Shown here in pieces: positions 7,266-35,241 of a stretch of DNA of 64,000 bases. The notes under the pieces are model-generated. The model searched no databases. It was not told the origin of the DNA and saw only the letters and a list, made by a program, of their open reading frames with translations. Positions within the stretch are counted from its first letter, which is position 1. Each line of letters opens with the position of its first letter. The translations under genes were made by a program, and so were the position numbers. Source of the DNA: an uncultured cyanobacterium (lineage in GTDB: Bacteria > Cyanobacteriota > Vampirovibrionia > Vampirovibrionales > JAGQHJ01); contig CALAJO010000005.1 of assembly GCA_937922745.1 (NCBI GenBank), positions 1,991 to 65,990 of the forward strand. The letters are read 5' to 3'.

Positions 7266-7331
7266 ACGTGATACGGTGATAATTATTCTTGATCGTAGGC
7301 CAAGCCAGGCAGGAAGTCCAGGCCACCCTGG

Positions 7332-8075
7332 TTAGCGTAACACCGGCATGGCTTTATCCACACAATCGTCAGACTCTTGCTGGAGCAGAAACTCGGCCAG
7401 TCGCAAGTCAAACAGGGTATCGATATCCACCGCGGCTTCCGGCGGCATTACATATGCATAGACTGGCCCCGCTAAAAAGCCATGGGCATAGGCCTGTTCT
7501 GCTTCAGTGCAGTAGATGGCGCCATTCAGGCAGAAGTTGTGGGCCAGTTGCTGACGATTGGTCTTTTGCTGATCAAAGCCGTGTAAAGCCAGCTCGCCGG
7601 TTTTGGAAACCGTGCCTTGCCAGGAGAGCGGCTTGCCGGGAGAAACACTCACCACGCTAACCGAACCCTTCGCTGCTTGTTGATGATAAAGCTGAAGCGC
7701 CTCATCAATATGCCGAGCAGTCCGTAGTGGCGATGTGGGTTGCAGTAACACCAAGGTGTCTGGATAGGCGGCGTTCGCATCAAGGTACCAATCCAGGAAG
7801 TGGCGGATGACCTGCTGGGTCGTGGCCGTGTCATTCGCAAGCTCCGCCGGGCGCGCTGCAGAGAGCAGTGCGCCATGCGCTTGGGCAACCTCTGCGATTG
7901 CCGCGTCATCCGTCGAAACATACACTGCATCAATCGTTTTGGCCTGCTGCGCCGCTTCGATGGTGTAGGCGATCAGCGGCTTACCACAGAGCGGATGGAT
8001 ATTCTTTCCAGGCAGGCCCTTTGATCCGCCCCGCGCAGGAATCAGCGCAACGGTTTTCACGCTTGGCCTATCCAT
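7332..8075 (-). CDS. CMP-nonulosonic acid synthetase (acylneuraminate cytidylyltransferase family, NeuA/LegF-like)
   Basis: CTP_transf_3 N-terminal motif ALIPARGGSKGLPGKN. Overlaps the upstream aminotransferase gene by 19 nt, indicating an operon. Confidence 0.8.
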   Translation of the reverse strand: MDRPSVKTVALIPARGGSKGLPGKNIHPLCGKPLIAYTIEAAQQAKTIDAVYVSTDDAAIAEVAQAHGALLSAARPAELANDTATTQQVIRHFLDWYLDANAAYPDTLVLLQPTSPLRTARHIDEALQLYHQQAAKGSVSVVSVSPGKPLSWQGTVSKTGELALHGFDQQKTNRQQLAHNFCLNGAIYCTEAEQAYAHGFLAGPVYAYVMPPEAAVDIDTLFDLRLAEFLLQQESDDCVDKAMPVLR

Positions 8076-9253
8076 TGATCCAACACATCCATAACGGATT
8101 GAATGACGCGCGTTTGCTGATCAGGCATCAGTGTAGAGGAGCTGGGGAGGTTAAAGCCATATCGTTGCCAGTGTTCCGCGTTAGGGCAAGGATGCTGGGC
8201 AAAAGGCTGGAATGGTTTCTGCAAATGCCCCGGCTTGAAGAACGGTCGGGACTGGATCTGTTGATCGTTCAACGCCTTCACCATATCCATGGCAGTGTAA
8301 CCGGGCACAGCCTCAGGATTCAGCGCAACACCGTAAAGCCAGTCGGAGCTAATCGCATCCGCGGGCGGCGCAAACCGTAAGAGGGCCGGATGACCGACAA
8401 AAGCCTCGCTATAGCGACGGGCGATATCCTGCCGGTTTTGGACGAAACGGGAAACCTGCTCCAGTTGCGCAACGCCCATGGCGGCCTGGACATTGGTGAG
8501 GCGGTAATTATAGCCTACTTCATCGTGGGAAAAGGTAAGGGCGTCATCCTTGGCCTGGTTGATAAGGTAGTGCGCCCGCTCCATCAAGGCCGTATTCTGG
8601 CTGATGATGAGGCCGCCACCACCGGTTGTCATTGTCTTGTTCCCGTTGAAGCTCAGGCAGCCAATCGTCCCGATTCGGCCGCACGGCTGGCCCTGCCAGT
8701 AGGCTCCCATTGCTTCCGCAGCGTCCTCAATCACCTTCAGGTTATGGCGCGCTGCAACATCAAGGACAGGTTCCATATTCATTGGGTGCCCATAAAGATG
8801 GACGGTGATAATCGCTTTGGTCTTCGGGGTAATCAAGGCTTCCAGCTTCGCCGGGTCAGCATTCCAGTGCGTTGCCTGGGAATCCCAAAATACGGGAGTC
8901 GCCTGGACATAACGGATCACATTAATGGATGAAATAAACGTCAAGCTGGGCACAATCACTTCGTCCCCCGGCTGGACGCCAGCCAGCAAAAGCGCAATAT
9001 GAAGCGCCGCAGTGCCGTTGACGGTTGCGACCGTCCGTTCAACGTTGAAATAATAAGCCATTTCCTGTTCAAAACGGGTTACGTAAGGGCCCACCGACGA
9101 AACCCAGCCGGAATCCAAGGCATCTTTCACATAATTCCAGGTATTGCCTTCCAGACAAGGCTCGGAAAGCGGGATAAAAGGCTGCATCGCCACGGCGTTA
9201 GACATGGTACAGGGCGACCTTTTCGTTGTTTTCCTGGGCCTTAAAGAAATCAA
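8057..9253 (-). CDS. DegT/DnrJ/EryC1/StrS-family PLP-dependent sugar aminotransferase (LegC/PseC-like)
   Basis: Fold-type I aminotransferase with PLP-lysine motif SFNGNKTMTTGGGG and the DegT-like N-terminal region. Confidence 0.85.
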   Translation of the reverse strand: MISLRPRKTTKRSPCTMSNAVAMQPFIPLSEPCLEGNTWNYVKDALDSGWVSSVGPYVTRFEQEMAYYFNVERTVATVNGTAALHIALLLAGVQPGDEVIVPSLTFISSINVIRYVQATPVFWDSQATHWNADPAKLEALITPKTKAIITVHLYGHPMNMEPVLDVAARHNLKVIEDAAEAMGAYWQGQPCGRIGTIGCLSFNGNKTMTTGGGGLIISQNTALMERAHYLINQAKDDALTFSHDEVGYNYRLTNVQAAMGVAQLEQVSRFVQNRQDIARRYSEAFVGHPALLRFAPPADAISSDWLYGVALNPEAVPGYTAMDMVKALNDQQIQSRPFFKPGHLQKPFQPFAQHPCPNAEHWQRYGFNLPSSSTLMPDQQTRVIQSVMDVLDQWIGQA

Positions 9254-10199
9254 CCGTCATTCGCAAGCCTTCTTTCAGGGAGTATTGCGGCGCGTAGTCG
9301 AGGATGGCCTTAGCCTTGTCGATATTCGACCAGAGGCGGAACACTTCACTCTTGTCCGGGCGGAAGCGCTCTTCCTGTTGAACGATATTCAGTTCCCGGC
9401 CCAAAAGATCTTCCACTTCCTTGATCAGGTCGGCAATGCTGATTTCATATCCCGCACCCACGTTGATCACTTGGCCTTCGGCAGCCTTGGTAGCGCCCGC
9501 TTTCAGGAAGCCCTGCACTGTATCCAGGACAAAGTTAAAATCACGCGTCGGCGTCAGGTTGCCTACCCGAACTACCTCGCCAGCCAGGCCCTGGCGGATG
9601 AGGTTGGGAATGATGGCCCGCATAGACTGGCGCGGCCCGTAGGTGTTAAACGGCCTCAGCAGCACCACCGGCAGATCGAACGAGCGGTAGTAGCTCTCCG
9701 CAATCTGATCGGCCCCGATTTTACTTGCGGAGTAGGGAGATTGCCCTTGCAAAGGATGCTGCTCATCAATCGGCACGTATTGGGCAGTGCCGTAAACCTC
9801 GCTGGTAGAAGTCGTCACAACACGCTCAATGTCAAAATCGCGACAGGCGTCCATCACGTTCAGCGTCCCGGTCACATTAGTATCCACATAAGAGCGCGGC
9901 GCAACATAGGAGTAGGGAATCGAAATGAGGGCCGCAAGATGGAACCCGTGGGTGCAACCTTTTACAAAATGGCGCACAAAACCACTATCCCGAACGTCGC
10001 CGGGCATTACCTCAATGGCTTCAAGCACTTCCGGGCTTAGCGTATCCAGCCAACCCCACTGGTTGGAGGAGTTGTAGCGCACCATTGCCTTGACGGACGC
10101 CCCTTCGCGCACCATCATCTCCGTAAGGTGGCTGCCGATAAAACCGCCGGCACCGGTGATAAAGACTTTCTTACCTTCCCAATATCTATTTGTATTCAT
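9198..10199 (-). CDS. NAD-dependent nucleotide-sugar 4,6-dehydratase/epimerase (extended SDR, LegB/RmlB-like)
   Basis: GxxGxxG Rossmann motif ITGAGGFIGSHL and catalytic YxxxK (YSASK). Overlaps the downstream gene by 56 nt. Confidence 0.75.
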   Translation of the reverse strand: MNTNRYWEGKKVFITGAGGFIGSHLTEMMVREGASVKAMVRYNSSNQWGWLDTLSPEVLEAIEVMPGDVRDSGFVRHFVKGCTHGFHLAALISIPYSYVAPRSYVDTNVTGTLNVMDACRDFDIERVVTTSTSEVYGTAQYVPIDEQHPLQGQSPYSASKIGADQIAESYYRSFDLPVVLLRPFNTYGPRQSMRAIIPNLIRQGLAGEVVRVGNLTPTRDFNFVLDTVQGFLKAGATKAAEGQVINVGAGYEISIADLIKEVEDLLGRELNIVQQEERFRPDKSEVFRLWSNIDKAKAILDYAPQYSLKEGLRMTVDFFKAQENNEKVALYHV

Positions 10200-10209
10200 C
10201 GTGATGTGC

Positions 10210-11274
10210 TTAAACTCCTACTGAAATATACTGTTCCGAGTCCTGGTTAACGCGAGCGTAATCCTCGGGCTGGCCAATGTCAATCCACGCCTCGGAAATG
10301 GGGAACGTTCCCACTTGCTGGCCTGATGAAAGCAGCACTTCAATCAGATCCGTCATATCAAAATAACGATTATCGGGGATATATTGCAAGGCCATCGGGT
10401 CGATCAAATAGATCCCCGCATTGATATTAAAGTGCTGAACCGGTTTCTCCTCCAGTTGAACCAGCCTCTGCCCCTCGGTGTTGAGGACGCCGTAAGGCAC
10501 CTGGTACTGAAAATGCCGTGAGCCCAAGGTCAACACATTGTTGTTTGCATGATGCCATTCCAGCATATCGTGGAAATTAATCCGGGTGAGGATATCGCCG
10601 TTCATCACGAAAATAGGGCGATCCAGGGCCTGGTTATGGAGGAACTTGAGGGAGCCGCCGGTTCCCATCGGGTTTTCTTCCCGGATGACATTGATATTGA
10701 GGGATTTCGGTGCATCCGCAGTCAGGAAATTCTCAATCATCTCGGACTTGTAATGGGTCATCACCCAGATGTCCTCAAACCCCTGTGCTTCGATATGGTT
10801 AAGGATATGCCCCAATATCGGGCGTTCGTTAATGGGAAGCAGCGGTTTCGGCGTTGTCAGCGTCAGCGGCCAAAGGCGCTTGCCTGCCCCGCCAGCCATA
10901 ATAACAATAGGGCACTTATGGTTGTCCCGCGGCACGTAATCCCGAAGCAGCACCAGGTTGGTTACCCGGTTGTTCTCATCCACAACGGGCAAGGCTTCGT
11001 TTTTATGCTTGGTCATCACGTCACGCAACTCCGTGGCGGTCATCGTGTCCCGGCCAACAACGGGTTTACTGTTCATCAAGCCGGATACACCGGTTAAGAG
11101 CGATACCCCCTTCAGCAAGGCCGTCCGCACATCCCAATCCGTAATGATGCCCAGCAGCGTTTCATCCTTGTCCACGACAAGCGAAATCTTAAACCCGGTC
11201 TTATTCAGGTTTTCCAGGACATCGGCCAGGGAATGGGTGGTTTCCAGATAGGCTTTGCGGTAATCATTGCGCAT
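10210..11274 (-). CDS. CBS-domain sugar-phosphate nucleotidyltransferase (PtmE-like, e.g. GlcN-1-P guanylyltransferase)
   Basis: N-terminal CBS pair (IITDWDVRTALLKG) fused to an NTP-transferase domain (IVIMAGGAGKRLWPLT...KPLLP). This architecture matches the PtmE enzyme of GDP-dependent legionaminic acid pathways. Confidence 0.75.
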   Translation of the reverse strand: MRNDYRKAYLETTHSLADVLENLNKTGFKISLVVDKDETLLGIITDWDVRTALLKGVSLLTGVSGLMNSKPVVGRDTMTATELRDVMTKHKNEALPVVDENNRVTNLVLLRDYVPRDNHKCPIVIMAGGAGKRLWPLTLTTPKPLLPINERPILGHILNHIEAQGFEDIWVMTHYKSEMIENFLTADAPKSLNINVIREENPMGTGGSLKFLHNQALDRPIFVMNGDILTRINFHDMLEWHHANNNVLTLGSRHFQYQVPYGVLNTEGQRLVQLEEKPVQHFNINAGIYLIDPMALQYIPDNRYFDMTDLIEVLLSSGQQVGTFPISEAWIDIGQPEDYARVNQDSEQYISVGV

Positions 11275-11381
11275 GAATGGGGTAATGCCTCCTCTTTAAT
11301 CCATCGCATTATGTTCCAGAATGACAGAAGCAGTAGAGAGATCATAATACAAGGACTTGGTGCGTAAGACGAATTTTGCTT

Positions 11382-11411
11382 TTCAATGATTTTTTCTTTA
11401 CATTGTATAAT
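11382..11411 (+). promoter_or_regulatory. candidate sigma70 promoter (TTCAAT-18-TATAAT) for the plus-strand nonulosonate operon
   Basis: Perfect -10 TATAAT at 11406-11411 in the AT-rich divergent intergenic region, about 90 nt upstream of the ATG at 11501. Confidence 0.4.
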
Positions 11412-11500
11412 CATCTGGCCGGTTTTCCCAAAGTCGCCAGGATTCTTTGTTCAAGGCCTTTTTACCTTATCGTAAAAGCGTTAAACCAGGAAAGAAACGC

Positions 11501-12727
11501 ATGTCCCCTTCGCTGAAACTTATGGTCGTCACCACCTCCCGTGCGGACTACGGACTATTATCGCCGTTGCTTCAGCGGCTTGGGAAAGATCCCCATTTCG
11601 AGGTGCTACTGGTGGCAACCGGCACCCATTTATCTCCTCTGCACGGCTATACGCTCAAACAGATCCAGGAGGAGTGGGATGGGGAGCTTACAACCGTGGA
11701 TATGACGATGAGTAACGATTCCGAGCAGGCGCTTTGCAATGCGGTTTCCGTCGGGGTGCAAGGATTCTCGCGCGTGTTAATGGATGAGAAGCCCGACGCG
11801 GTTATCCTGCTTGGCGATCGCTATGAATTGTTCTCTATTGCGCCTGCCGCAGTCATCCACAAAATCCCCATCATCCATATCCACGGTGGTGAGGCCACGT
11901 TCGGAGCCATAGATGAAGCCATCCGCCACGCCGTAACCAAAATGGCCGCCATTCATTTCCCAACCATTCCCGCCTATGCCCGGCGGATTATCCAGATGGG
12001 CGAAAACCCGGCCCATGTTTTTGCGGTTGGCGCACTCGGCGTGGATAATATCCACCAGATTGAAACCTACTCCGTTGAGGCATTCAGCAAACTGACCGGC
12101 GTTCAATTCGTAACTGAAAAAGTTGCCTTGATGACGTATCACCCGGTGACGCTGGAAGGGTACAAAGAGGCCGCGCAACAGGCGAAAAACCTAATGGATG
12201 CGTTGCTGGATACCGATTTAACCGTGCTGGTGACCATGCCCAACGCCGATACGGGCGGTGTACAGGTTTATGAAACCATACAGGGCTATCTCAACCACTA
12301 TCCGCAAAAGTTCAGGCTGATGAAAAGCCTGGGGCAGAAAGGTTACCTGAGCGCCATGCGCTACGCCCGCCTGATGGTTGGCAATTCTTCGAGCGGCATT
12401 TTGGAAAGCGCATCGTTTCAGCTTCCGGTGGTGAACATCGGCGACCGGCAGGCGGGGCGCTTTGCGCCGGAGAACGTCATCCATTGCGGATACGATACGG
12501 CATCCATCAAGGCAGCCATTCAAGACGCTTGCTCCGATGCGTTTCGGGCCGCCATTGCAGGGCTTGTTAACCCCTATGGGGATGGCAAGGCAGCGGAGCG
12601 CATTGCTGAAACGCTTAAGACCATTGACTTTCGGGATAAGACCCTGCTGCTTAAGAAAGGGTTTTTCGATATGCCTGCCGAAGTCATTGACGGTGCGGTT
12701 GAGCCGTTGCATCTGGCCCATGCTTAA
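11501..12727 (+). CDS. hydrolysing nucleotide-sugar 2-epimerase (NeuC/LegG/PseG family)
   Basis: Epimerase_2 motifs TSRADYGLL...HIHGGE. Start placed at ATG 11501 with RBS GGAAAG; the track's TTG at 11447 is less likely. Confidence 0.8.
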   Translation: MSPSLKLMVVTTSRADYGLLSPLLQRLGKDPHFEVLLVATGTHLSPLHGYTLKQIQEEWDGELTTVDMTMSNDSEQALCNAVSVGVQGFSRVLMDEKPDAVILLGDRYELFSIAPAAVIHKIPIIHIHGGEATFGAIDEAIRHAVTKMAAIHFPTIPAYARRIIQMGENPAHVFAVGALGVDNIHQIETYSVEAFSKLTGVQFVTEKVALMTYHPVTLEGYKEAAQQAKNLMDALLDTDLTVLVTMPNADTGGVQVYETIQGYLNHYPQKFRLMKSLGQKGYLSAMRYARLMVGNSSSGILESASFQLPVVNIGDRQAGRFAPENVIHCGYDTASIKAAIQDACSDAFRAAIAGLVNPYGDGKAAERIAETLKTIDFRDKTLLLKKGFFDMPAEVIDGAVEPLHLAHA

Positions 12728-12784
12728 CTCCGACGAGGATTATATGGTGCTGGATTTGTCTCAACGGATTAAGGGAACGGGATA

Positions 12785-13567
12785 ATGCGCATACTCTACA
12801 TGGGGAAAAACAAGCCTGCTGTTATTGCCGGGTTGGAATACCTGGTTGAGCAGGGGCATGATGTGGTGGCCGTTGCGGCGCAGAAGAACAAAATGCCTGG
12901 CTCGCATTGCCTGGTGGAGACGGCCCATCGCTTTGGCATTCCTGTAACGAGCGATATTGCGTTATATCAAAACATCGCGGCGGGACAGTGCCCGCCGGAG
13001 TGCGGCTATCACCTTCAGGACATCGATCTGGTGATCTCCTACCTGTTTTGGAAGAAGATCAGAAAGCCGCTGATTGAGCTGCCGAAACTGGGATGCATCA
13101 ACTTCCACCCTGCACCGCTGCCGGATTACAAGGGGCTTGGCGGATACAACTTCGCGATTTACGAAGGCGCACAACAGTGGGGTGTTTCCGCCCACTTTGT
13201 GAACGAGGATTTTGACGCGGGCGATCTCATCAAAGTGATGCGCTTTGATATCAACCCCAACCGCGAAACGGCCTACTCCTTGGAGCAGAAGAGCCAGAGC
13301 GTCATGTTTGAGCTTTTTCAATATGTGATGGATCTGATAGCTTCCGGCCAACCCTTGCCGAGAATCCCCCAGCTGCAAGGCGGAAAATATATTACCCGCG
13401 CCGATTTTGAAGCCCTGCGCAAGGTGTCCGAGACCGACACGGTTGAGGAAATCAAGCGAAAAGTTCGCGCCTTCTGGTATCCGCCGTATGAAGGGGCGTA
13501 TGTTGATATTAATGGGGAGAGTTTTACGCTCGTATCCAGGGAATTGCTGCAAGATCTGCGCCCGTGA
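12785..13567 (+). CDS. formyltransferase-family protein (sugar N-formyltransferase-like, Fmt N-terminal domain only)
   Basis: About 260 aa with formyl_trans_N core HPAPLPDYKGLGG...SAHFVNEDFDAGDLI (His/Asp catalytic motif) and no tRNA-binding C-terminal domain. Size and motifs resemble sugar N-formyltransferases. Confidence 0.7.
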   Translation: MRILYMGKNKPAVIAGLEYLVEQGHDVVAVAAQKNKMPGSHCLVETAHRFGIPVTSDIALYQNIAAGQCPPECGYHLQDIDLVISYLFWKKIRKPLIELPKLGCINFHPAPLPDYKGLGGYNFAIYEGAQQWGVSAHFVNEDFDAGDLIKVMRFDINPNRETAYSLEQKSQSVMFELFQYVMDLIASGQPLPRIPQLQGGKYITRADFEALRKVSETDTVEEIKRKVRAFWYPPYEGAYVDINGESFTLVSRELLQDLRP

Positions 13568-13645
13568 CCCTGAGGTGCGCTTCTTGTCGGCAGGATGGGA
13601 CTATGCTAACCTCGGTGTAAAGCCTTCCCAAGGAGAGAGACAGAG

Positions 13646-14644
13646 ATGACGAATGCACTGCTGGTCGCACTGGGCGTAATGGGAAAGCGCTATCAAAAAG
13701 CGCTGGAGACAGTCTTTGGCGAAGACTTGAACCTGTACACGGTGGATCCCAAATTCCCAACCAACCATGGAAGCCGACATTATGCCGATATTGCGGAAGT
13801 ACCGGACAACATCGCGTTTGACATCGCCGTGGATGCGCGCCCAAATTTGGGCCGGATGGGCGTTTTCAAGCATTTCCTGGTTCGCAACATCCCCCGCATT
13901 GTGATTGAAAAGCCCTCAGCTTCCTCAATGGAGGAGTCGCGCGCCATGCTGGCCTTATACCAGCAGGCTGTCAACAAGCCCACCATCCTGGTTCCGTTTT
14001 ACCGTCGCTTTACCAGCGCGTTCGCCCCGCAAACCCTCTCAAAACTGGATGCCGGCCAGCTGAAATCTGTTGTCATTTCCGCCGGCGCGGTCGGGTTGGG
14101 CTGTGTAGGCATCCATTACGTCGATCTGGCCAATTACTTGTTTGGTGCGACGCCAACCGATGTTTACGCCCAGCTGGAGTTGGGGACGATTCCCAGCCCG
14201 CGCGGGGAGCAGTTTAAGGATGACGCCGGGACGCTGATCGTCAACTATCCCAATGGGCGCTTTGTGCTGAATCTGCTTTCAGACTCCACGGCCGGGGCGA
14301 ACATTACATTGCTCTACGAGCGCGGGAAGATTCAGTTCCTGGATCAGCGGGGCTACCAATGGCTCTGGTTTCGACAGCCCAGGGAAAACTGGCAGGAGCC
14401 GTACTACAAAACCCACCAGGAAGTGATGATCGATCCGCCGGAACCTTATGGGTTTAACCTGGAAGAGATGATGGCAAAAGGGATTCGCGCGCTCTGCGAT
14501 GATAAGGTTTCTATCCCAACGCTGGAAGACGGGCATCATGCGCTTCAGGTGCTGGCGCTGGCCATGAAGTCCTCGCAGGAAGGCAGGACTATTGCCTGGA
14601 CGGATCAATCCGCCATAGAAGCCGTTTCGTTCCACTTTACCTAG
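13646..14644 (+). CDS. Gfo/Idh/MocA-family oxidoreductase
   Basis: Rossmann N-terminus and an EKP motif (IVIEKPSAS), followed by a C-terminal alpha/beta dimerisation domain. Confidence 0.6.
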   Translation: MTNALLVALGVMGKRYQKALETVFGEDLNLYTVDPKFPTNHGSRHYADIAEVPDNIAFDIAVDARPNLGRMGVFKHFLVRNIPRIVIEKPSASSMEESRAMLALYQQAVNKPTILVPFYRRFTSAFAPQTLSKLDAGQLKSVVISAGAVGLGCVGIHYVDLANYLFGATPTDVYAQLELGTIPSPRGEQFKDDAGTLIVNYPNGRFVLNLLSDSTAGANITLLYERGKIQFLDQRGYQWLWFRQPRENWQEPYYKTHQEVMIDPPEPYGFNLEEMMAKGIRALCDDKVSIPTLEDGHHALQVLALAMKSSQEGRTIAWTDQSAIEAVSFHFT

Positions 14645-14655
14645 GAGGTTAGCCC

Positions 14656-15588
14656 TTGCGGATTGCATTTATCGGGGCCGGAAATATTGCGCCGTTTCAC
14701 CTACAAGCCATCCGCCTGCTGGGGGCGGAGGTCGTCGGGGTCTGCACGCGAAGCGATCGGGGCCGGGTTTTTGCCGAGGAAAACCGGATTCCGCATTTCT
14801 CCCCGGATGCCAGGACGCTGGTTAAGGAAAGTCAGGCACAGGCCGTAATGCTGCTGGCGCAGCCATCCGCGTACCCGCAGATCCTGTCGGACTTGAAGCC
14901 GCTGAACCTCCCGACGTTCCTTGAAAAGCCGTTGAGCTATACCGTTCAGCAGGCCGAGGCGTTGCGTCCCCTGCTGCCCGATGTCGTTTTTGTGGGCCTA
15001 AACCGTCGTTTTTACGGCAACATCCAGCAGATTATGCCACTGCTGCAAGCCTCGCCCTCATTCTCTGCCGAGCTGGTAATGCCGGAGCGCCTGAAGGATT
15101 TTGAACACCGGGATGAATTGACCCGCCACTTCTGGCCCATGATGAACAGCATCCACGGGATTGATTTGATGACGTTTCTGGCAGGCGCACCAACCGAGCT
15201 GCTTCATCTGCATCGGTGGAACTACCTGGAACCAATCGACGAAATGCAGTACCGGACGGCTGTTTACCAGACCGAACACAACCATACCGTCACATTTCTG
15301 AGCAATTTGGACTCCCCCGGCGGATGGCGCATGCATTTCTTCCTGGCGAAGCAGGAAGTGATAGTGTCCCCGCTTGAGAAAACAATTATCAGATCCTTAT
15401 CCGGCGTGGAGGAAGTGCCTGTAACCAAGGCTGATCGGCTGGCAAAGCCCGGTTTTCTGCACCAGATGCAAACCTTTCTGGAAGGGGCGGCCAATCCGAA
15501 GCATTTTCCGGCAGAATGGGTTTCGTTCGATGCGGCGTTACAGTCCATGCGCGCGGTAGAACTGCTTTTCCCAAAATCGGCTTCATGA
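14656..15588 (+). CDS. Gfo/Idh/MocA-family oxidoreductase
   Basis: IAFIGAGNIA Rossmann motif and LEKPL. TTG start preceded by AGGAGG. Confidence 0.7.
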   Translation: MRIAFIGAGNIAPFHLQAIRLLGAEVVGVCTRSDRGRVFAEENRIPHFSPDARTLVKESQAQAVMLLAQPSAYPQILSDLKPLNLPTFLEKPLSYTVQQAEALRPLLPDVVFVGLNRRFYGNIQQIMPLLQASPSFSAELVMPERLKDFEHRDELTRHFWPMMNSIHGIDLMTFLAGAPTELLHLHRWNYLEPIDEMQYRTAVYQTEHNHTVTFLSNLDSPGGWRMHFFLAKQEVIVSPLEKTIIRSLSGVEEVPVTKADRLAKPGFLHQMQTFLEGAANPKHFPAEWVSFDAALQSMRAVELLFPKSAS

Positions 15589-15717
15589 TTTATTTTTCAT
15601 TAAACAGTCCCATATGTTGAAGCCGTTTTCAAAAGATGGCTTTATAATGTTTGGGAGAGATTTGGAAGTTTTTTCCAGCTTGCTTCATTTGGGCTGAAAC
15701 TGAGACGCTAGGAAGAG

Positions 15718-17973
15718 ATGAATATCTACGGAACCAATGGACGGGACACCATTAGAGCCGGCAACGGCCACGATGTGATTTTTGGCTACGCCGGAGACGA
15801 CACGATTTACGGCCAAGGCGGCAACGACTGGATTCACGTGACGTTTTTGCCGGGCAACGATTACATCCATGGCGGCGCAGGCTTTGATACGGTCGAGATT
15901 TCAAACCGCTATTGGACACAGTACCGGAACCGCTTCGAGATTTACAACACGGAATTTAACCTGCATACCGGAAGGGCCACATTTGACACGTTTACCATTC
16001 GTACCTTCAGCATCGAGCAGGTTGTTGGCACGGGCAACCCTGATTTGCAGGACGTCATTTCAGCCGCGGGGGCAACCCGCAGCGTCACGATTAACCTGCT
16101 GAACGGCCGCATTGTTGGCGCGGCATCCGGCCTAAAGATGGTTAGCCGTTTTGAGGCGGCAACTGGCGGGCTTGGCCGGGATACCCTGATAGGCGATCAT
16201 CTGCAAAATGAGCTGAACGGCGGGGCCAATGCCGACACCATGAACGGCCAGGGCGGCTACGATCTATTCTGGGTGGATAATCTCGGCGATCGGGTCGTAG
16301 ATACTGCAAGCCGTACGATTGATACGGTGATTGCCAGCGTTGATTACACATTGCCAATCTACCTGGAAAACCTGATTCTCCTGGAGTTCTTCCCTGTTAC
16401 GACCGCCACGGGAAATGCCCACCATAACTTCCTGCTGGGCAATGCTTCCGCAACCCTGATGAGTGGGTTGGCTGGGCATGATGTCATCTGGGGACAGGAC
16501 GGCAATGATACATTGCTCGGCGGTCTCGGAAACGATTTCCTTTCCGGCGGGGCAGGCGATGATACCTTTGTCTATATCGCATCGGGCGGCCATGAATTCA
16601 TCCTGGATAGCCAGGGCCAGGATATCCTTGACATGAGCGTCTTTCTGCTGGCTGACATTGCGAGTTGGGTTGCGTTGGATGGCCCCGATGCGGATACGTG
16701 GATCGACCAACTGGCGGTTTATATCAATACCGGCAGCACGATAACCATGGCGCAGTTCTTTGACAACAGCACAGCCGATATCAACCTGCTCTCTGCCGGA
16801 ACGGGGCAGGTTGAATCGATACGGCTGGGCGATGTGACGCTGCAATTCACGGATATATTGCCTTTGATCACCGCCGATCCTGGTTTGCAAAGCACGCTTC
16901 TCGCCTTGCAAACTAACGTGGACTGGATGAATCAAGGATTTAACCACTTGGGCATCATTCCCACAACCTTTCTCGACCAAGGTGATAATTTCCTCATCGG
17001 GACGCCGCAGGAAGATATTATTGATGGCCTGGCCGGTAATGATACTATTCGCAGTGGCGTTGGCGCGGACACGATTTATGGGAACGAGGGCAACGATGTC
17101 CTGCTGGGCGGCAACCACTACGACCAGATTTATGGCGGGCCGGGGAACGATACCATTAAAGGAGGCCCGGGCACCGACTTGCTACTGGGTGGATCCGGCG
17201 ACGACACGTATTCCATTATTTCCACCACCGATATGGTTGTGGAGGACGCCAATAACGGGAATGATACGGTGGTAAGTACGGTATCGTACAGGCTGACTCC
17301 CAATGTCGAAGCCCTGATCCTGAGCCAGTCGGCCGGATCAATTCACGGAACGGGGAATGAACTCCACAACGCCATTCGCGGCAACGCCGGGGCGAATCGT
17401 CTTTATGGCTTGGGCGGCAACGATACCATGTGGGGCGGGGGCAGTAATGATACGCTGTATGGCGGAACCGGGCACGATCTGCTTAATGGCGATTCGCGGA
17501 ATGATATGCTTTTTGGCGATGACGGCAACGATACCCTTTGGGGCGGAACCGGCAACGACACCTTGACCGGCGGCCAAGGTGACGACGTTTTATACGGCGA
17601 GTCGGACAGGGATGTCTTAATATCCGATTGGGGGAATGACACTTTGATGGGGGGCATTTCGGATGACACCTATCGTATTCTGTCCGCCACCAGCGAGCAG
17701 CGCGTAATCCAAGATACGGCAGGTTTGCTGGATGTGTTGGATCTGCGGACAATAGCAGCCAGCGGCAACGTCACCTTCCAGGCGGTGGATGGCAGCGATG
17801 CAGACACAGACTTGGATGCGTTACGAATCGTATTTGGCTCCGGCGCGGAACTTCGCATAAACCAGTATTTCGCCAACGCTCCGACACTCTCGCCGGGGAA
17901 TGGGCTGATTGAAAGAATTATGCTGGCGGATACGACCTTTGATTATAATATGGTCGTAAACGCCCTGATTTAA
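15718..17973 (+). CDS. RTX-type calcium-binding repeat protein (hemolysin-type Ca-binding repeats), likely a secreted or surface protein
   Basis: Many GGxGxDxL/I/F nonapeptide repeats (GNGHDVIFGYAGDDTIYGQGGND, GGLGNDFLSGGAGDDTF and others). No N-terminal signal peptide, consistent with a T1SS-type substrate. Confidence 0.8.
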   Translation: MNIYGTNGRDTIRAGNGHDVIFGYAGDDTIYGQGGNDWIHVTFLPGNDYIHGGAGFDTVEISNRYWTQYRNRFEIYNTEFNLHTGRATFDTFTIRTFSIEQVVGTGNPDLQDVISAAGATRSVTINLLNGRIVGAASGLKMVSRFEAATGGLGRDTLIGDHLQNELNGGANADTMNGQGGYDLFWVDNLGDRVVDTASRTIDTVIASVDYTLPIYLENLILLEFFPVTTATGNAHHNFLLGNASATLMSGLAGHDVIWGQDGNDTLLGGLGNDFLSGGAGDDTFVYIASGGHEFILDSQGQDILDMSVFLLADIASWVALDGPDADTWIDQLAVYINTGSTITMAQFFDNSTADINLLSAGTGQVESIRLGDVTLQFTDILPLITADPGLQSTLLALQTNVDWMNQGFNHLGIIPTTFLDQGDNFLIGTPQEDIIDGLAGNDTIRSGVGADTIYGNEGNDVLLGGNHYDQIYGGPGNDTIKGGPGTDLLLGGSGDDTYSIISTTDMVVEDANNGNDTVVSTVSYRLTPNVEALILSQSAGSIHGTGNELHNAIRGNAGANRLYGLGGNDTMWGGGSNDTLYGGTGHDLLNGDSRNDMLFGDDGNDTLWGGTGNDTLTGGQGDDVLYGESDRDVLISDWGNDTLMGGISDDTYRILSATSEQRVIQDTAGLLDVLDLRTIAASGNVTFQAVDGSDADTDLDALRIVFGSGAELRINQYFANAPTLSPGNGLIERIMLADTTFDYNMVVNALI

Positions 17974-18009
17974 AAGCCGGGGTAGAAGACAGGACGAAAG
18001 CCCCTTAAA

Positions 18010-19851
18010 TTGATTTCCTTCCTGAGCAAGCGCCTTTTTTCGAGAAACGTGGTTTTAACGCCAGCGTTTTCATACTATACCTTGCAGTACTTGCATGATC
18101 GGGCAAAACAACCCCATGGACTGTTTTGCTCCAGCCATATTGAATGCTACGCGTTAACGCCGAGCCAAAAGCAGCTTGAGAAGAAACTGCCTCCCAATGT
18201 TGCAATGGTTGTGCTGCCACCCGTTGAGAGCGATGCGGACGATATTTACCTGCATGCTTACCAGACCACAGACAGCCTGGTTCAGCAGATTGGGGACGCG
18301 TTTCCCGGTTTCTTTCATTTTCGGGGTGCAAGGATTGATTTGGAGAAGGCGTATCGGTTTAATGTTCAGCATTTGCTCTGCCGGTCCGAATTCTGTTTCT
18401 ACCGCAGCCTGCCGGATATCAAGGACAGTAATGCGCCCATTTTTGTGGATATTTTACTAAACCGGACAATGCTGGATGCGTTTCTCAAATCGAGCAAACG
18501 AAGCCAATATCGCCAATACCGCCTTGAGTCCTCGCTAATGGCCGAAACTTTGAGTGAACGGTTTGCGCAACTGGCCGCCAATCGGGTGGCGCCGCCGGGG
18601 CAGGACACGATTTCGCAGGGCGGCGTTTTTGCTTTTGTGGGCAGCAAACGGGGCTTGGACAGCTTTATCGATGCCTTGCAGATTCTGGCGAAGCGCCAAC
18701 CGGTTTGCCTCTACTTCTATAATGGCAAGTTCGATCTACCAAAGTCTATCATCGAAAGCCTTTCCGAGATTTCACCGGTCGTGATACTGGACAACCAGTC
18801 TTATTCCAGCCCCGCTTTGGCAAAGGCCCTTGCAGCGGATATCAGGGAGAGGCAGCATGCCCTGGCCAGCCTGGCCTCGGCAGAAGACCGGGCCTTTCTC
18901 TGCAACCAGTTCCAGAAGCTCTTTCCTATCCTGGATAAACTCCTAACGTGTGACGCGCTGTTTCAAGCCACCCGCCCGGCAATTGTCCTGGGCGCCCTAG
19001 AGTCCAATATTTATAGTGTGCTTTGCTCTCAACTGCGTGAGGTTTATGGATTTCGGCTCCTCAATTTCCAGCACGGAATGAAGCCTCCCACCCGAACGCT
19101 TCATCTGGCAAGGTTTAACGCATATTTCGTATGGAACGAACTGACACGGAACGTGCTGGAGGCCGATCAGTACCCAAACTTGGAAGGGGTTTATATCATA
19201 GGCAACCCCGATGCGGACAAGCTCCGAACGATTGTGGCCCAAGTCGATACGGGACATTACCGGCAACTGCTGGGATGGAAGGGAAATAGCCAGCTGATTG
19301 TTGCATACACCCAGCCCAACAAAGGCTTGATGACGGCCGCAATCAAGCGGGACTTTATCGCGGCCCTGCTGAAATACTGCCTGGACGTGAATCCCCATTG
19401 CAAGCTGCTGGTGGCCATGCACCCAGCCGAAACACAGGCGGATATTCCGCCTGATTTGCAAGCGTCGATTCAACAGCTTGGCACTCGATGCCATGTCACG
19501 CTCCCGGGAGGACTGAGCCTGCCTGAAAGCCTGAAGTTGGCGGACTTGGCCGTCTCGGTTTATTCCACCACGCTGATGGAAGCCTTGTATATCGGCAAGC
19601 CGGCCCTTGCCCTGGATTTCAGCCACACCATCCGGCGCCAGGAACTGGGTTACGATCAGGTTTTGCCCGTGGTTACAATGCCAGAAGCGGTTGTCGAAGC
19701 ATTGGACGCCCAATTGAGCCAGCCTGGGGCAGAAACAAACCAAACAATGGACAAAGCATTGAGGGGCAATTTTTTTATTCCCCATTTTGAAAAACCTTAC
19801 CAACAAAGGCTTTCGGATGTGCTGGACACGCTGGTTCCTTGCACGCTTTAA
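18010..19851 (+). CDS. large GT-B-like putative glycosyl/phosphotransferase (TagF/capsule-biosynthesis-like C-terminal domain)
   Basis: C-terminal region with IIGNPDADKL (GxPxxD-like), an HG motif and SVYSTTLMEALYIGKPAL resembles CDP-glycerol glycerophosphotransferase/KpsC-like GT-B enzymes. Paralogous to the next gene. Start codon uncertain (TTG). Confidence 0.5.
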   Translation: MISFLSKRLFSRNVVLTPAFSYYTLQYLHDRAKQPHGLFCSSHIECYALTPSQKQLEKKLPPNVAMVVLPPVESDADDIYLHAYQTTDSLVQQIGDAFPGFFHFRGARIDLEKAYRFNVQHLLCRSEFCFYRSLPDIKDSNAPIFVDILLNRTMLDAFLKSSKRSQYRQYRLESSLMAETLSERFAQLAANRVAPPGQDTISQGGVFAFVGSKRGLDSFIDALQILAKRQPVCLYFYNGKFDLPKSIIESLSEISPVVILDNQSYSSPALAKALAADIRERQHALASLASAEDRAFLCNQFQKLFPILDKLLTCDALFQATRPAIVLGALESNIYSVLCSQLREVYGFRLLNFQHGMKPPTRTLHLARFNAYFVWNELTRNVLEADQYPNLEGVYIIGNPDADKLRTIVAQVDTGHYRQLLGWKGNSQLIVAYTQPNKGLMTAAIKRDFIAALLKYCLDVNPHCKLLVAMHPAETQADIPPDLQASIQQLGTRCHVTLPGGLSLPESLKLADLAVSVYSTTLMEALYIGKPALALDFSHTIRRQELGYDQVLPVVTMPEAVVEALDAQLSQPGAETNQTMDKALRGNFFIPHFEKPYQQRLSDVLDTLVPCTL

Positions 19852-19910
19852 AAATTCACATTAAAATACCAAGCACATCACGCTTGCATAACCCTTGATG
19901 ATTTTACCTG

Positions 19911-22172
19911 ATGGTTGATCTCCCCCAACAGCATATTCTCTACGCCGGTGGACATAATGATCCGCTGTTCCTTTCGCACTTGGCACACTATGTCCAACGT
20001 CCCGGGCTTTGCCTGTATATCCAGTCGCCGAAGACCCGGCATAAAATAGAGAAGCTCAACCTGTTTTCCCCTGGGCAGTATCGTTTTTGCGGATTGCCGG
20101 AGGCCGGAACGGGACAGGCCCATTGGACACGCTGCAAACAGTTTGCGTTACAGCGCAGCAATACCTTGCAGCATTGGGATCCGGGGTTTTACGCGCTAAA
20201 GGATCCGGCGGTTGAGCTACGCAAGCCGTTTATCCGCTTTTTATCGCTGTCTCGGTTTAACGGGGAGCTGATGATGGTGGAGGCGCTGGCCGGGTTGATT
20301 GCCGGGCATCAAGCCAGTTCCAGCGAGCAGCACCAATATGTCCTCTTTACCGGTTTGCTCAGTCCGGCTGAGGTGCAAGCCCTGCTAGGCAACAAGCCCA
20401 ACGTGCAGGTAATCCTGTTGCCGCTGAATCCCAACGCTTCCCCCCATTTTTTGCATGTGGCGCTCAAACAGTTGGAAAGCGAATACCAGGCCGAGCATGC
20501 CGAAATCCTGAAAGACCCTTACGCAGATGATATCCTGGCGGCGTCTGAAGACCAGGAAGATGCGCTGTCTCACGCAGCCGGGGAACCGGCCCTGGTTCGA
20601 TTTTTCTCCGGTCTTAAGCGGCAGCCGAGAAAAACCGTCCTGGGCTTATTCCGGGAAGTTTACAGGGCCATGCGCCGGTTTTACCGTCATCAGGTCAAAC
20701 CGCTCCTGGCTTTTGCGCTCTCGCTGCTTTACCCTGTTGCCTGGCTGCTGGAAAAGGCAACCCGGCCGTTCCTGCTGCTTTACCGCAAGGCTTACCTGTT
20801 TGCCCGGCTGGAGGTGTATTACGGTAACCCGTGGATATACACGTTGTTGAGCCGAAAGGGATTGCAGCTCATTGTTTCCCTTCGCGGAAACTTCAGCCTG
20901 CCCGCGCTGTTCCAGAATGTGCAACTGCTGGTAAAAATGGAGCCGGAAGCCGCCATCGTTTTTTCCATCGGCAAGCCCAGCAACATCCCCGCCCGGCTGA
21001 AGGTTTTAAAGCCCGTGATCGAAAGGCTTCTGGTGGAGCGAAAGCGGGTCAAACTGATTGCCTTTATGGCCCACCTCGATGCGGATATCTATATGGACGT
21101 GCTGGGCCCGGCCGTGATGAACCATTTCCTCTTTTCCCTGCACCATGTGCCCTATTTGAGCCCATCCAAGGGCGGGGAGTACCAGACGTTCGATAAGGCG
21201 CTTTTCCCGGCAAACCAGGAGCGGATCGCGTCAGTCTTGGAAACCGGTTTGCCGCTGGAGGAGAAGATGTTACTCCTGAATGCCGCGGCGCAATACGGGC
21301 ACCTGAAGAAAACCGCCGTTTCCCTGAACCAGGTTTTTGCCTTCTTCCCCGGCCAGCATATCATCGGCACGTTGGACGTGCATTTTTTGACGATTTTGAG
21401 CCAACTCCGGAAACACCATCACCGGGATACCCGGATTCATGGCGTGCAGTTCGGGGTGGCAGCCCTGCGCGATTGCATGGACTGCCTGGACTTCGACACG
21501 TTTTTCGTCAGCGACGAGGCCGCGCAAGCAGTGTATGAAGCCGCCGGTTGTAATGCCGGACAATATCGCATTGTGGGCAACCCGGAGTGGGAAGCCCCGC
21601 TTTTGGCGGACAGCGCAAAAAACCCAATTGAGCGCTTTGATCAAGGATTTTGCGGCATGGTAGGCGTATTTACCCAACCCCTGGACGGAAGTGGCATGAG
21701 CTGCGAGGTGATGTTATTGGTTTACCAGGGGATTTTTGATTTCGCGGCACGGCACCCGGATATTGGCATCCTCATCAAGCCCCATTACCGGGATGACATC
21801 GCCCGCCTCAAAGCCATCATCCCGCCCCGAAACAACATCCTGCTGCTGGAAAGCCGGGTTGACAACACGCCCATCTTTCAAGGAATTGATGTAGCCGTTT
21901 CCTTCTTCTCTGCCGTCCTGCAATCGGCGCTTGCCAACGGTGTGCCCGCAGCGGCCTTTTGCGGCCCCCCGGAATTCCATCAGCTTTATAGCCAACTGGA
22001 ACAGCATGGCGGCCATTACGCCCCAGATTTGAACGATGCCATGGCTTGGCTGGAAACTTATTTTACCGATACGGCCTTGCAAGCGAAGTATAAGGCCAAG
22101 GCCAAAGCATATCAGTTAGCCTTGCTGGAAAACCTGCCTTCGACCCAGATCGTCAGCCACCTTTACAGTTGA
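19911..22172 (+). CDS. large GT-B-like putative glycosyl/phosphotransferase, paralog of the preceding gene
   Basis: Shares RIVGNPEWEAPL, an HG motif and a C-terminal GT-B-like core with 18010-19851. Confidence 0.5.
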   Translation: MVDLPQQHILYAGGHNDPLFLSHLAHYVQRPGLCLYIQSPKTRHKIEKLNLFSPGQYRFCGLPEAGTGQAHWTRCKQFALQRSNTLQHWDPGFYALKDPAVELRKPFIRFLSLSRFNGELMMVEALAGLIAGHQASSSEQHQYVLFTGLLSPAEVQALLGNKPNVQVILLPLNPNASPHFLHVALKQLESEYQAEHAEILKDPYADDILAASEDQEDALSHAAGEPALVRFFSGLKRQPRKTVLGLFREVYRAMRRFYRHQVKPLLAFALSLLYPVAWLLEKATRPFLLLYRKAYLFARLEVYYGNPWIYTLLSRKGLQLIVSLRGNFSLPALFQNVQLLVKMEPEAAIVFSIGKPSNIPARLKVLKPVIERLLVERKRVKLIAFMAHLDADIYMDVLGPAVMNHFLFSLHHVPYLSPSKGGEYQTFDKALFPANQERIASVLETGLPLEEKMLLLNAAAQYGHLKKTAVSLNQVFAFFPGQHIIGTLDVHFLTILSQLRKHHHRDTRIHGVQFGVAALRDCMDCLDFDTFFVSDEAAQAVYEAAGCNAGQYRIVGNPEWEAPLLADSAKNPIERFDQGFCGMVGVFTQPLDGSGMSCEVMLLVYQGIFDFAARHPDIGILIKPHYRDDIARLKAIIPPRNNILLLESRVDNTPIFQGIDVAVSFFSAVLQSALANGVPAAAFCGPPEFHQLYSQLEQHGGHYAPDLNDAMAWLETYFTDTALQAKYKAKAKAYQLALLENLPSTQIVSHLYS

Positions 22173-29039: not shown

Positions 29040-30071
29040 TCAGCCCGCCAGGATTTCAGCAAAGCGCTGCACATCCACATTGCCTCCGGAAAGCACCACG
29101 GCAACTATTTGACCTGAAGCCTTGATTTTTCCGGATAACACGGCGGCCAACGCCACAGCCCCACCCGGTTCCACCACCAGCTTCAGATGCTCGAAAGCAA
29201 ACCGCATGGCGGCTTTCACCTCGTCATCGGTCACGGCCAGGCCGCCATGGAGATGGTGGGCGTTAATCTGAAAAGTTAACCGGCCGGGCTCCGGCATCAT
29301 CAAGGCATCGCACATGGTTGTTGCGCCGGGTGCGTTTCGCTGGCGCTGTTTGGCTTGCAGCGACCGCGCCGTATCATCAAACCCCTCCGGTTCCACGGAA
29401 TAAATTTCCGTTTCGGGGCTCATGGCCTTAATGGCCAGTGCGCATCCGGCAATCAGGCCGCCGCCGCTGCATGGGGCGAGCAGCTTATCCAGTTTAATGT
29501 GTCTTGCATTGGCTTCTCTGTAAATTTCCATCCCCACGGTGCCTTGCCCGGCAATGGTGTACGGATGATCATAGGGGGGCAGCAAGGTGGCCCCGGATTC
29601 CTCCGCCAGGGCTTGCGCAATGGCTTCGCGGGATTCCGCTTGTCGATCGTACAGAACGACGGATGCGCCATAAGATTGAGTCTTCTCAATCTTAATTCTC
29701 GGGGCGTCGGACGGCATGACAATGGTTGCCGGAATATCGAACAATTGGGCGGCATAGGCCACGGCCTGTGCATGGTTACCGGAAGAGTAGGCTAATACGC
29801 CTCGCTGGCGGGTCTGGCGATCCAATTGGCTAATGAAATTGTACGCCCCGCGAAACTTAAACGAACCCGTCTTTTGCAAAACTTCCGGCTTCAGCAGGAT
29901 ATGCCCGCCGGTGATTTCATCCAGGCGCTCTGAGACCAGCAAGGGGGTTTGGATAATATGCCCTTCCAGGCGCTTCTCCGCCCGCAGGATATCGTCAAAG
30001 CTGGGCAGTGTCTCCGCTTCAATAAGATTCGACCCGGATGGTTTCATACTCTCCCCCGTACTTTTGCTCAT
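29040..30071 (-). CDS. catabolic-type threonine/serine dehydratase (fold-type II PLP enzyme, no ACT domain)
   Basis: PLP-lysine motif SFKFRGA and a Gly-rich loop. 343 aa without a regulatory C-terminal domain. Confidence 0.8.
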   Translation of the reverse strand: MSKSTGESMKPSGSNLIEAETLPSFDDILRAEKRLEGHIIQTPLLVSERLDEITGGHILLKPEVLQKTGSFKFRGAYNFISQLDRQTRQRGVLAYSSGNHAQAVAYAAQLFDIPATIVMPSDAPRIKIEKTQSYGASVVLYDRQAESREAIAQALAEESGATLLPPYDHPYTIAGQGTVGMEIYREANARHIKLDKLLAPCSGGGLIAGCALAIKAMSPETEIYSVEPEGFDDTARSLQAKQRQRNAPGATTMCDALMMPEPGRLTFQINAHHLHGGLAVTDDEVKAAMRFAFEHLKLVVEPGGAVALAAVLSGKIKASGQIVAVVLSGGNVDVQRFAEILAG

Positions 30072-33885: not shown

Positions 33886-33949
33886 TCCCTTTATATAGGG
33901 GATTTTGAATTTTTCCGCTTGGATACAATGAGGGGATGGAGTGATTTGC

Positions 33950-35112: not shown

Positions 35113-35241
35113 AGAAGCCTCCACACACTAAAAATTCAAATTAACCCAACACTGTTATAAAACCGCGCAACTGCAAACTTGTTGACAGCCTTTATAAATT
35201 CATCAGATTTGGGTGGAGGATTTCCATCCTTCAGGCTTTGG

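Follow-up and report, generated by a model that had tools for sequence, protein, structure and literature searches.

P2, a candidate nonulosonate transferase of a rare GT-B family encoded beside a legionaminic-acid-type gene cluster in a cyanobacterium of the Vampirovibrionia

We investigated a 64,000-nucleotide stretch of DNA (hereafter the window) from an uncultured cyanobacterium of the order Vampirovibrionales (GenBank assembly GCA_937922745.1, contig CALAJO010000005.1, positions 1,991 to 65,990 of the forward strand), in which genes for the synthesis of a nonulosonate (NulO) are followed by three co-oriented genes coding for an RTX-repeat protein and two large proteins, here termed P2 and P3. 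Judged by profile comparisons, P2 is a member of a rare, previously unnamed family with the GT-B fold that is remotely related to the transferases for derivatives of pseudaminic acid (Pse) and legionaminic acid (Leg) of Tannerella forsythia. An earlier note on this DNA, made by a model from the letters, had described three co-oriented open reading frames (ORFs) of 751, 613 and 753 amino acids (aa), and these are exactly as it gave them:

15718-17973, plus strand: RTX protein, 751 aa (ORF)
18010-19851, plus strand: P2, 613 aa, with a TTG start (ORF; an alternative annotated start at 18049 gives 600 aa)
19911-22172, plus strand: P3, 753 aa (ORF)

Public records hold P2 in both forms, the 600-aa one beginning 13 codons further downstream. 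The gaps from the last plus-strand pathway gene to the RTX gene (130 nucleotides, nt), from the RTX gene to P2 (36 nt) and from P2 to P3 (59 nt) are operon-like, and the order RTX-P2-P3 is reproduced in an independent assembly from the Sequence Read Archive (L012, a 5.7-kb contig). A terminator-like hairpin at 15618-15644 falls in the gap that separates the RTX gene from the pathway; the scan counted no more such hairpins than it did in shuffles, its promoter counts likewise matched shuffled sequence, and operons were not defined from it.

The NulO genes upstream of this trio are as follows:

6147-7265, minus strand: NulO synthase NeuB/LegI (TIGR03569, 398 bits against a cutoff of 399.65)
7332-8075, minus strand: CMP-NulO synthetase (cytidylyltransferase; LegF; PF02348)
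8057-9253, minus strand: LegC-family aminotransferase (TIGR04181, 387 bits against a cutoff of 420)
9198-10199, minus strand: LegB 4,6-dehydratase (TIGR04180, 466 bits against a cutoff of 475)
10210-11274, minus strand: PtmE-like protein with CBS and nucleotidyltransferase domains (PF00483 and CBS)
11447-12727, plus strand: hydrolysing 2-epimerase NeuC/LegG (TIGR03568, 420 bits against a cutoff of 236; PF02350, 284 bits)
12785-13567, plus strand: formyltransferase-like protein of 260 aa, directly after NeuC/LegG (PF00551, E 2e-20)
13646-14644 and 14656-15588, plus strand: two GFO/IDH/MocA oxidoreductases (PF01408, PF02894)

They form two divergent operons, on the minus strand at 6147-11274 and on the plus strand at 11447-15588, and the RTX, P2 and P3 genes share the orientation of the latter only. 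Thus, the co-orientation with the nonulosonate operon that the earlier note had described applies to the plus-strand half and not to the minus-strand half. By its complement of enzyme families, the cluster at 6147-15588 is of the legionaminic-acid type and follows the GDP-GlcNAc route. Because a hexapeptide N-acetyltransferase of the LegH/PglD type is missing from the cluster and a formyltransferase-like gene is found there instead, the product of the pathway may be an N-formyl or otherwise unusual N-acyl derivative of Leg. Even with P2 and P3 left aside, the window encodes an enzymatically complete pathway, and between 2759 and 22172 there is no glycosyltransferase other than these two; therefore, the role of the transferase is an obvious vacancy.

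Sequence searches with P2 gave only faint signals of relationship to known families. Against Pfam it has a sub-threshold match to Glycos_transf_1 (E 6.5e-4), while among the NCBIfam models it matches NF046086, the BFO_1060 family glycosyltransferase, with 28.7 bits (E 7e-7; profile positions 107-301 of 365), and, weakly, TIGR04396, annotated as a surface carbohydrate biosynthesis protein. Word-indexed searches of 5.8 billion proteins with P2, P3 and a profile of the P2 family retrieved nothing beyond the queries themselves. An exhaustive phmmer search with P2 recovered 103 relatives among 1.84 billion cluster representatives, 21 of them at E <= 1e-30; most are 550-650 aa long, the best is only about 30% identical to P2, and those that carry a name at all are without exception labelled 'hypothetical protein'. 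The family has neither a curated model in Pfam or NCBIfam nor a solved structure, and a comparison of its profile with the sequences of the PDB gave nothing significant, the sole alignment being one to Cps3D at E 0.49.

We next compared an alignment of 31 family members including P2 (A1) with the curated models, with the following results:

NF046086 (BFO_1060 family): 16 of 31 members match, best E 8e-12
TIGR04396: 9 of 31 members match, best E 1.4e-8
DUF6716 ('putative glycosyltransferase'): 6 of 31 members match, best E 6.3e-8
Epimerase_2 (PF02350): 2 of 31 members match weakly, best E 4.6e-4
Capsule_synth (PF05159, KpsC/S): 1 of 31 members matches weakly, best E 4.7e-6
Glyphos_transf (PF04464, TagF): 0 of 31 members match (E <= 1e-3)
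MAF_flag10: 0 of 31 members match

NF046086 and TIGR04396 are the only NCBIfam families matched by P2 and its relatives, and the former is the sole curated transferase family among the matches; P2 is homologous to its members but lies outside that family. Neither P2 nor P3 matches PF04464 (at E <= 0.01), PF05159, PF02350 or MAF_flag10, and no profile of a sialyltransferase family finds a match in P2, P3 or the family members. The literature that we searched on DUF6716, TIGR04396 and PF20471 yielded nothing. The resemblance to TagF/KpsC-type enzymes that the earlier note had seen in both large proteins thus holds for the general GT-B fold (see below) and not for these two families, while its expectation of a Maf-like or KpsC-like transferase finds no counterpart beyond the single weak Capsule_synth match.

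Five positions are invariant in A1, namely P323, H355, G398, S519 and D536 in the numbering of P2, and they are embedded in or accompanied by the motifs N-x-Q-H-G, FD(4)WN, GNPxW, TQP, [KR]-x-[HR]-P-x-[ED] and S-x-x-S-T-x-L-x-[DE]-A. H355 in particular is unchanged in every other aligned family sequence, both in the 30 of A1 and in the 35 of a further alignment (A3), whereas the His-Pro (HP) motif is shared by P2 with 20-22 of 35 relatives, an arginine taking the place of its histidine in 13. Bacterial CMP-donor sialyltransferases of the GT-B type (GT38, GT52 and GT80) combine an HP motif in the C-terminal domain with a D/E-D/E-G motif in the N-terminal one; the latter is not conserved in the P2 family, which has N-x-Q-H-G instead. 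In the window the two key elements are positioned thus:

19063-19137, plus strand: family signature N352-x-Q-H355-G...F369-N...W375-N of P2 (alignments A1 and A3), with the codon of H355 at 19072-19074
19414-19431, plus strand: motif x-x-H471-P472-x-E474 of P2, which opens the C-terminal Rossmann domain (alignment columns)

An AlphaFold2 model of P2 with A1 as the input alignment (pLDDT 90.7, pTM 0.91) comprises an N-terminal alpha/beta domain of residues ~1-195 followed by a part with two Rossmann-like domains (~200-610), to which the GT-B fold can be confidently assigned. Foldseek searches of the PDB with this model returned 274 matches at E <= 1e-3, all of them GT-B enzymes or epimerases: the top matches are UDP-GlcNAc 2-epimerases (E 2.5e-10, target TM-score ~0.65, 13-15% identity), and next come TagF, TarL and the TagF-like capsule polymerase Cps3D (E 6.5e-9 to 1e-8), together with MshA. 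P2 has no segment resembling a transmembrane (TM) helix, its maximum KD19 hydrophobicity being 1.27.

To examine the genomic contexts of the family, we back-translated the signature N-x-Q-H-G-(12)-F-D-(4)-W-N into a degenerate DNA pattern (~40 bits) and scanned with it 185,579 species, each represented by one genome. It revealed eight loci, of which six are genuine and two are chance matches, about one being expected. The latter are L005 from Pseudoalteromonas, where the match falls on a Ycf48-like protein adjacent to an RND transporter, and L003, in which the frame is full of stop codons. All six genuine members adjoin NulO genes:

L006, Oculatellaceae cyanobacterium: NeuB
L008, Vampirovibrio sp.: NeuB
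L002, V. chlorellavorus: CMP-NulO synthetase
L001, Phycisphaerales: NeuC, LegB and PtmE-like protein
L004, Phycisphaeraceae: LegC-family aminotransferase, LegB and PtmE-like protein
L007, Bacillota: CMP-synthetase, NeuC, NeuB and PtmE-like protein

These loci span four groups at the level of phylum or class, Cyanobacteria, Vampirovibrionia, Phycisphaerae and Bacillota. Their other neighbors include HisF-like proteins, glutamine amidotransferases and a hexapeptide acetyltransferase, which are typical of the tailoring of NulOs. A scan of metagenomes added two further loci. In one (L011) the family homolog adjoins a HisF/HisH-like pair of an amidotransferase; in the other (L010) a 379-aa relative (7945-9084) is found within a polysaccharide cluster with Bac_transf, GT2, GT4 and MurJ/Wzx genes. 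The latter and the member from Bacillota (394 aa, at 1821-3005 of L007; hhalign 97.9%) are short forms devoid of the ~195-aa N-terminal domain. The occurrence of such forms in both a NulO cluster and a polysaccharide cluster points to the N-terminal domain as an addition that determines the specificity for the acceptor. None of these eight distinct loci shows an RTX gene in the 3-12 kb covered around the family member.

Three proteins of T. forsythia, Tanf_01245, TFUB4_00887 and BFO_1060, are transferases of Pse or Leg derivatives, as established by knockout, complementation and glycan mass spectrometry, their genes adjoin the CMP-NulO locus, and an HP motif has been described in them as well as in bacterial sialyltransferases (Tomek et al. 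2017, PMC5420450). Like these, P2 is a soluble protein of the GT-B/TagB-like kind without TM segments, with an HP motif in the C-terminal half and a gene beside a CMP-NulO locus. The differences are equally clear: the Tannerella enzymes are of ~445 aa, while the 613-aa P2 has the additional N-terminal domain; the signature of P2 (NxQHG, FD..WN, GNPxW and TQP) is a different one; P2 is accompanied by a degenerate paralog, unlike the Tannerella enzymes; and its family is found in Cyanobacteria, Vampirovibrionia and Phycisphaerae, whereas the Tannerella family is found in Bacteroidota. With the teichoic acid-type enzymes TagF, TagB and TarL (PF04464; PDB 3L7K, 8VA1 and 8QOY) P2 shares the GT-B fold and a predicted cytoplasmic, peripherally membrane-associated location. 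However, the structural similarity (TM-score of ~0.5; E 6.5e-9 and 0.52 for 3L7K) is no better than that to generic GT-B proteins, and the genomic context of P2 is one of NulO genes, whereas that of the TagF group is one of CDP-glycerol or CDP-ribitol genes. TagF has a histidine in its N-terminal domain (H444) and a motif of the His-Pro type in its C-terminal domain (H584), which by analogy would correspond to those of P2.

P3 had been called a paralog of P2, which is true at the level of profiles (P3 residues 444-720 against the family profile at P2 286-569; hhalign probability 99.4%, E 3e-21), while the pairwise similarity is weak (BLASTP, 25% identity over 226 aa, E 4e-6). We hence regard P3 as a very divergent paralog whose relationship is convincing only in profile comparisons. 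It has no match in Pfam or NCBIfam, including NF046086, and none of the databases searched contains an ortholog or any relative of it other than the P2 family. In the AlphaFold2 model of P3 (pLDDT 69) the parts predicted with confidence are the N-terminal domain that it has in common with P2 (~70-170) and the GT-B part (~350-750). Between them lies a helical insert of ~150 aa (residues 195-343), modelled with low confidence, which holds the only hydrophobic helix of the protein (262-280). Foldseek again retrieved GT-B proteins, with non-hydrolysing UDP-GlcNAc 2-epimerases on top.

P3 has lost several conserved residues. BLASTP, hhalign and MAFFT agree in placing Phe514 (codon 21450-21452) at the position where all 35 other aligned sequences have the histidine equivalent to His355. 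Of the four positions invariant in A3 (P323, H355, S519 and D536) it retains S519 alone; the residues lost besides H355 are D536 (C684), D/E524 (S672), P323, N352, W375, W423 and R493. Accordingly, the GxPxxD and HG motifs that the earlier note had ascribed to both proteins are present in P2 (GNPDAD and QHG), while P3 has GNPEWE and, at the homologous site, QFG, its IHG (509-511) not being the His-Gly of the family. Because the invariant histidine and about eight other conserved residues are lost, P3 is probably catalytically impaired or changed in function, and it looks like a pseudo-glycosyltransferase.

The RTX protein was rightly described as packed with RTX nonapeptides: PF00353 matches in 10 stretches (205.5 bits against a cutoff of 23, E 6e-62), and there are 10 strict GGxGxDx[hydrophobic] repeats where 0.09 are expected from shuffles. 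It is built of two tandemly duplicated halves (residues 3-381 aligned to 435-747, E 2e-34), each of which consists of a beta-roll block and then a cap module of ~75 aa. The protein is acidic, with an abundance of Gly, Asp, Asn and Thr (Thr 9.3%), 0.3% Lys and no Cys. Its sequence matches in the PDB, and thus its only solved relatives, are confined to RTX blocks, those of CyaA, lipases, serralysins and AlgE, so that the protein is devoid of an enzymatic domain. We also noted an excess of the tripeptide D-[ST]-[AILMTV] (19 against ~4.9 expected from shuffling), which is the sequon specific to O-glycosylation in Bacteroidota; it was dropped as evidence of glycosylation, being a by-product of the GNDT[LI] register of the repeats, and the match is probably a coincidence.

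Taken together, the fold, the remote homology and the conserved synteny support P2 as a dedicated NulO transferase, and we favor, as the probable though by no means certain explanation, that it uses the CMP-Leg-type sugar produced by the neighboring cluster and transfers it, on the cytoplasmic face, to an acceptor. The earlier note had proposed both large proteins as dedicated CMP-nonulosonate transferases; the proposal gains ground for P2, with its GT-B fold, NF046086 matches and linkage to NulO genes at all six loci, and becomes doubtful for P3 with its lost histidine. That note had also named in advance the findings that would speak against it, homology to TagF together with a lack of co-occurrence with NulO genes, and neither is observed. 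In the mechanism that we envisage, the gene cluster at 6147-15588 would make a CMP-activated nonulosonate of the legionaminic-acid type, which P2, as a soluble, cytoplasmic or peripherally membrane-bound GT-B enzyme, would use as its donor. By analogy to TagF and the bacterial sialyltransferases, H355 in the N-terminal Rossmann domain is the putative base activating the hydroxyl of the acceptor, while H471-P472, S516/S519 and E524 in the C-terminal Rossmann domain might likewise hold the phosphate and ribose of CMP. The ~195-aa N-terminal domain probably recognizes the acceptor. P3 would be a degenerate duplicate that has kept the fold, lost the histidine and gained a helical, partly hydrophobic insert; most likely, it either serves as a non-catalytic partner, be it as a membrane tether or as a subunit that binds the acceptor, or has come to catalyze a different reaction.

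Several observations weigh against the transfer of a CMP-Leg-type sugar by P2. The 28.7 bits of P2 against NF046086 are far under the curated cutoff of 200 bits, as are the scores of all family matches. At four positions that are well conserved in the family, P2 itself has a different residue (D370N, G387Q, W402A and K/R469A). Structurally, it is best matched by UDP-GlcNAc 2-epimerases and not by sialyltransferases, and the donor cannot be read from the fold alone. The polysaccharide cluster of L010 has no visible core NulO gene within 12 kb, the only NulO-like gene being of the DegT type. Finally, the synteny was sampled by means of one strict motif, present in 24 of 102 family representatives, and over short flanks, and is not a census.

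As the acceptor we consider two candidates, a lipid-linked surface glycan and the adjacent RTX protein. The former is suggested by the precedent of the Tannerella enzymes, which modify an O-glycan while it is lipid-linked and before its transfer to S-layer proteins, by the polysaccharide context of L010, and by the presence of a polytopic membrane protein at 4495-6066 along with the hydrophobic insert of P3. The RTX protein is an unproven candidate that may instead be the product of an unrelated passenger gene. The fullest form of this alternative has P2 as the catalytic and P3 as the pseudo-enzymatic member of a GT-B complex that O-glycosylates Ser/Thr of the RTX protein with a Leg derivative in the cytoplasm, before type I secretion. 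It has a mechanistic precedent in Maf: Maf and FlmG are cytoplasmic and move CMP-Pse or CMP-Leg directly onto Ser/Thr of a protein that is secreted later, so that modification would precede export here as it does for Maf and flagellin. P2 is, nevertheless, unlike Maf in its fold class and in finding no match with MAF_flag10, and no flagellin or flagellar genes are present in the window; to our knowledge, cyanobacteria lack flagella. GtfA/GtfB, on the other hand, an O-GlcNAc transferase complex, are a pair of GT-B paralogs, one of which is without catalytic residues and binds the substrate, and are encoded beside a secreted serine-rich-repeat adhesin. P3 might comparably bind the unfolded RTX protein, keeping as it does the fold while its catalytic-looking residues are gone. 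The likeness is one of pair architecture only, and GtfA/GtfB differ in being Gram-positive proteins with a UDP-sugar donor and export by aSec. We know of no defined glycans or glycosyltransferases for the cyanobacterial RTX surface proteins oscillin (Phormidium) and SwmA (Synechococcus WH8102). Both have been reported as glycoproteins (PMC3034196), and the RTX protein of the window resembles them in being Cys-free, acidic and without an enzymatic domain, with Ca-binding repeats, a likeness of general features. Also in keeping with modification of the RTX protein are its abundance of Thr, the position of its gene between the pathway and P2/P3 with operon-like spacing in the order repeated in L012, and the lack of signal peptides in P2 and P3 and of TM segments in P2, which would place them in the cytoplasm, where substrates of a type I secretion system (T1SS) remain accessible. 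However, the adjacency that had led the earlier note to suggest the RTX protein as an acceptor is seen in this organism only, the eight related loci being free of RTX genes within their short flanks, and with up to 35 RTX genes per cyanobacterial genome (PMC3034196) a chance neighborhood is plausible. P3 has no ortholog elsewhere, which means that the pair is not a conserved system, and the hairpin before the RTX gene would separate that gene from the pathway, although such hairpins are no more numerous than in shuffles. As that note had said of T1SS and flagellin, the 64-kb window has no genes for these, nor for pilins, though a T1SS may be encoded elsewhere in the genome. RTX proteins leave the cell through a cognate T1SS of ABC, MFP and OMP components, whose genes are often close by, and carry for this an uncleaved C-terminal signal. 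On balance, we consider glycosylation of the RTX protein by such a complex rather improbable.

Two further alternatives concern the activity itself. P2 and P3 could build the same surface glycan with another donor, either a CDP-alditol as in TagF/TagB or an ordinary sugar, in which case the NulO transferase would be encoded elsewhere. This would be consistent with the place of TagF, TarL and Cps3D among the structural matches, with the lone, non-significant alignment of the family profile to Cps3D, with the general polysaccharide cluster around the short form of L010, and with the fact that HP-type motifs are common to enzymes using CDP- and CMP-linked donors. Yet PF04464 fails to match P2, P3 or any of the family members, no gene for CDP-glycerol or CDP-ribitol synthesis of the TagD/TarI/TarJ type was detected in the cluster, and the linkage of the family, tight and phylogenetically broad, is specifically with NulO genes; the Leg cluster, moreover, would be left with no transferase. 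A different donor is accordingly an unlikely explanation. That the top structural matches of both models are non-hydrolysing UDP-GlcNAc 2-epimerases, along with the weak PF02350 match in two family members, could instead be taken to mean that P2 and P3 are nucleotide-sugar-modifying, 2-epimerase-like enzymes of NulO biosynthesis and not transferases. Here, however, the fold in common with the epimerases is that of GT-B proteins in general, at a sequence identity of 13-15%, and PF02350 matches neither P2 nor P3; the only curated families matched are those of transferases, and a genuine hydrolysing 2-epimerase, NeuC/LegG, is already present in the window (420 bits) as well as in L001 and L007. 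We deem this very improbable. Transfer of the CMP-Leg-type sugar by P2 is hence the explanation that we retain.

The remainder of the window contains further genes of potential relevance to surface glycans:

4495-6066, minus strand: polytopic membrane protein of 523 aa, immediately downstream of NeuB, with ~10 hydrophobic segments and a soluble C-terminus of ~120 aa (by hydropathy)

This protein, which the earlier note had called GT-C-like, is polytopic but has no sequence homology to entries of Pfam, NCBIfam or the PDB and no homolog in the related loci; it may belong to the glycan system as a polymerase, a ligase or a GT-C-like enzyme. Also downstream of NeuB is a soluble protein of 434 aa (2759-4063, minus strand) with a faint FG-GAP match and no relative in Pfam, NCBIfam or the PDB; a homolog indicated in L001 by a weak tblastn match was spurious, arising from a high-GC frame with a low-complexity translation. 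Both orphans may be part of a system for the export or attachment of the glycan. About 9 kb downstream of P3 lies a second glycan-related gene group (31318-39284, plus strand), coding for an 855-aa TPR protein whose C-terminal domain is of the GT41 type (O-GlcNAc-transferase-like), a TylF-type O-methyltransferase, a GT2 protein, a 550-aa protein without a family and a membrane protein of the LPG_synthase_TM family. It is preceded by an unusual domain combination, a 381-aa protein in which an AhpC/TSA peroxiredoxin domain is joined to a 2OG-Fe(II) oxygenase domain (30019-31164, minus strand). An isolated 166-aa ORF for an HNH endonuclease (43919-44419, minus strand), which may be the remnant of a mobile element, is located between the genes for an alpha/beta hydrolase and a 955-aa GHL10 glycosyl-hydrolase-like protein. 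The window further encodes PBS-lyase HEAT repeats and GAF/PAS kinases, and the closest NeuB is found in a metagenome-assembled genome of the Oculatellaceae, features that give it a cyanobacterial look.

While the biosynthetic pathways of Pse and Leg are well mapped, the enzymes that attach these sugars are poorly known. Glycosyltransferases of the GT-B type with a CMP-NulO donor are known already; what is new in P2 is the distinctive signature, the added N-terminal domain and, at this locus, the degenerate paralog, which with P2 makes a natural pair of active and degenerate versions for probing the catalytic residues. If the RTX protein were the acceptor, P2 would represent a new class of protein-directed NulO glycosyltransferases, distinct from Maf, FlmG and the lipid-linked route of Tannerella, and would be part of the first identified machinery for the glycosylation, long known yet unexplained, of cyanobacterial RTX surface proteins of the oscillin/SwmA type. 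The locus and its relatives define a rare, unannotated GT-B family linked to clusters of the Leg/Pse type across Cyanobacteria, Vampirovibrionia, Phycisphaerae and Bacillota, which can be annotated by its motif set (NxQHG, GNPxW, TQP, [KR]x[HR]PxE and SxxSTxLx[DE]A), and P2 is a candidate, amenable to direct testing, for the transferase still missing from the picture in these lineages.

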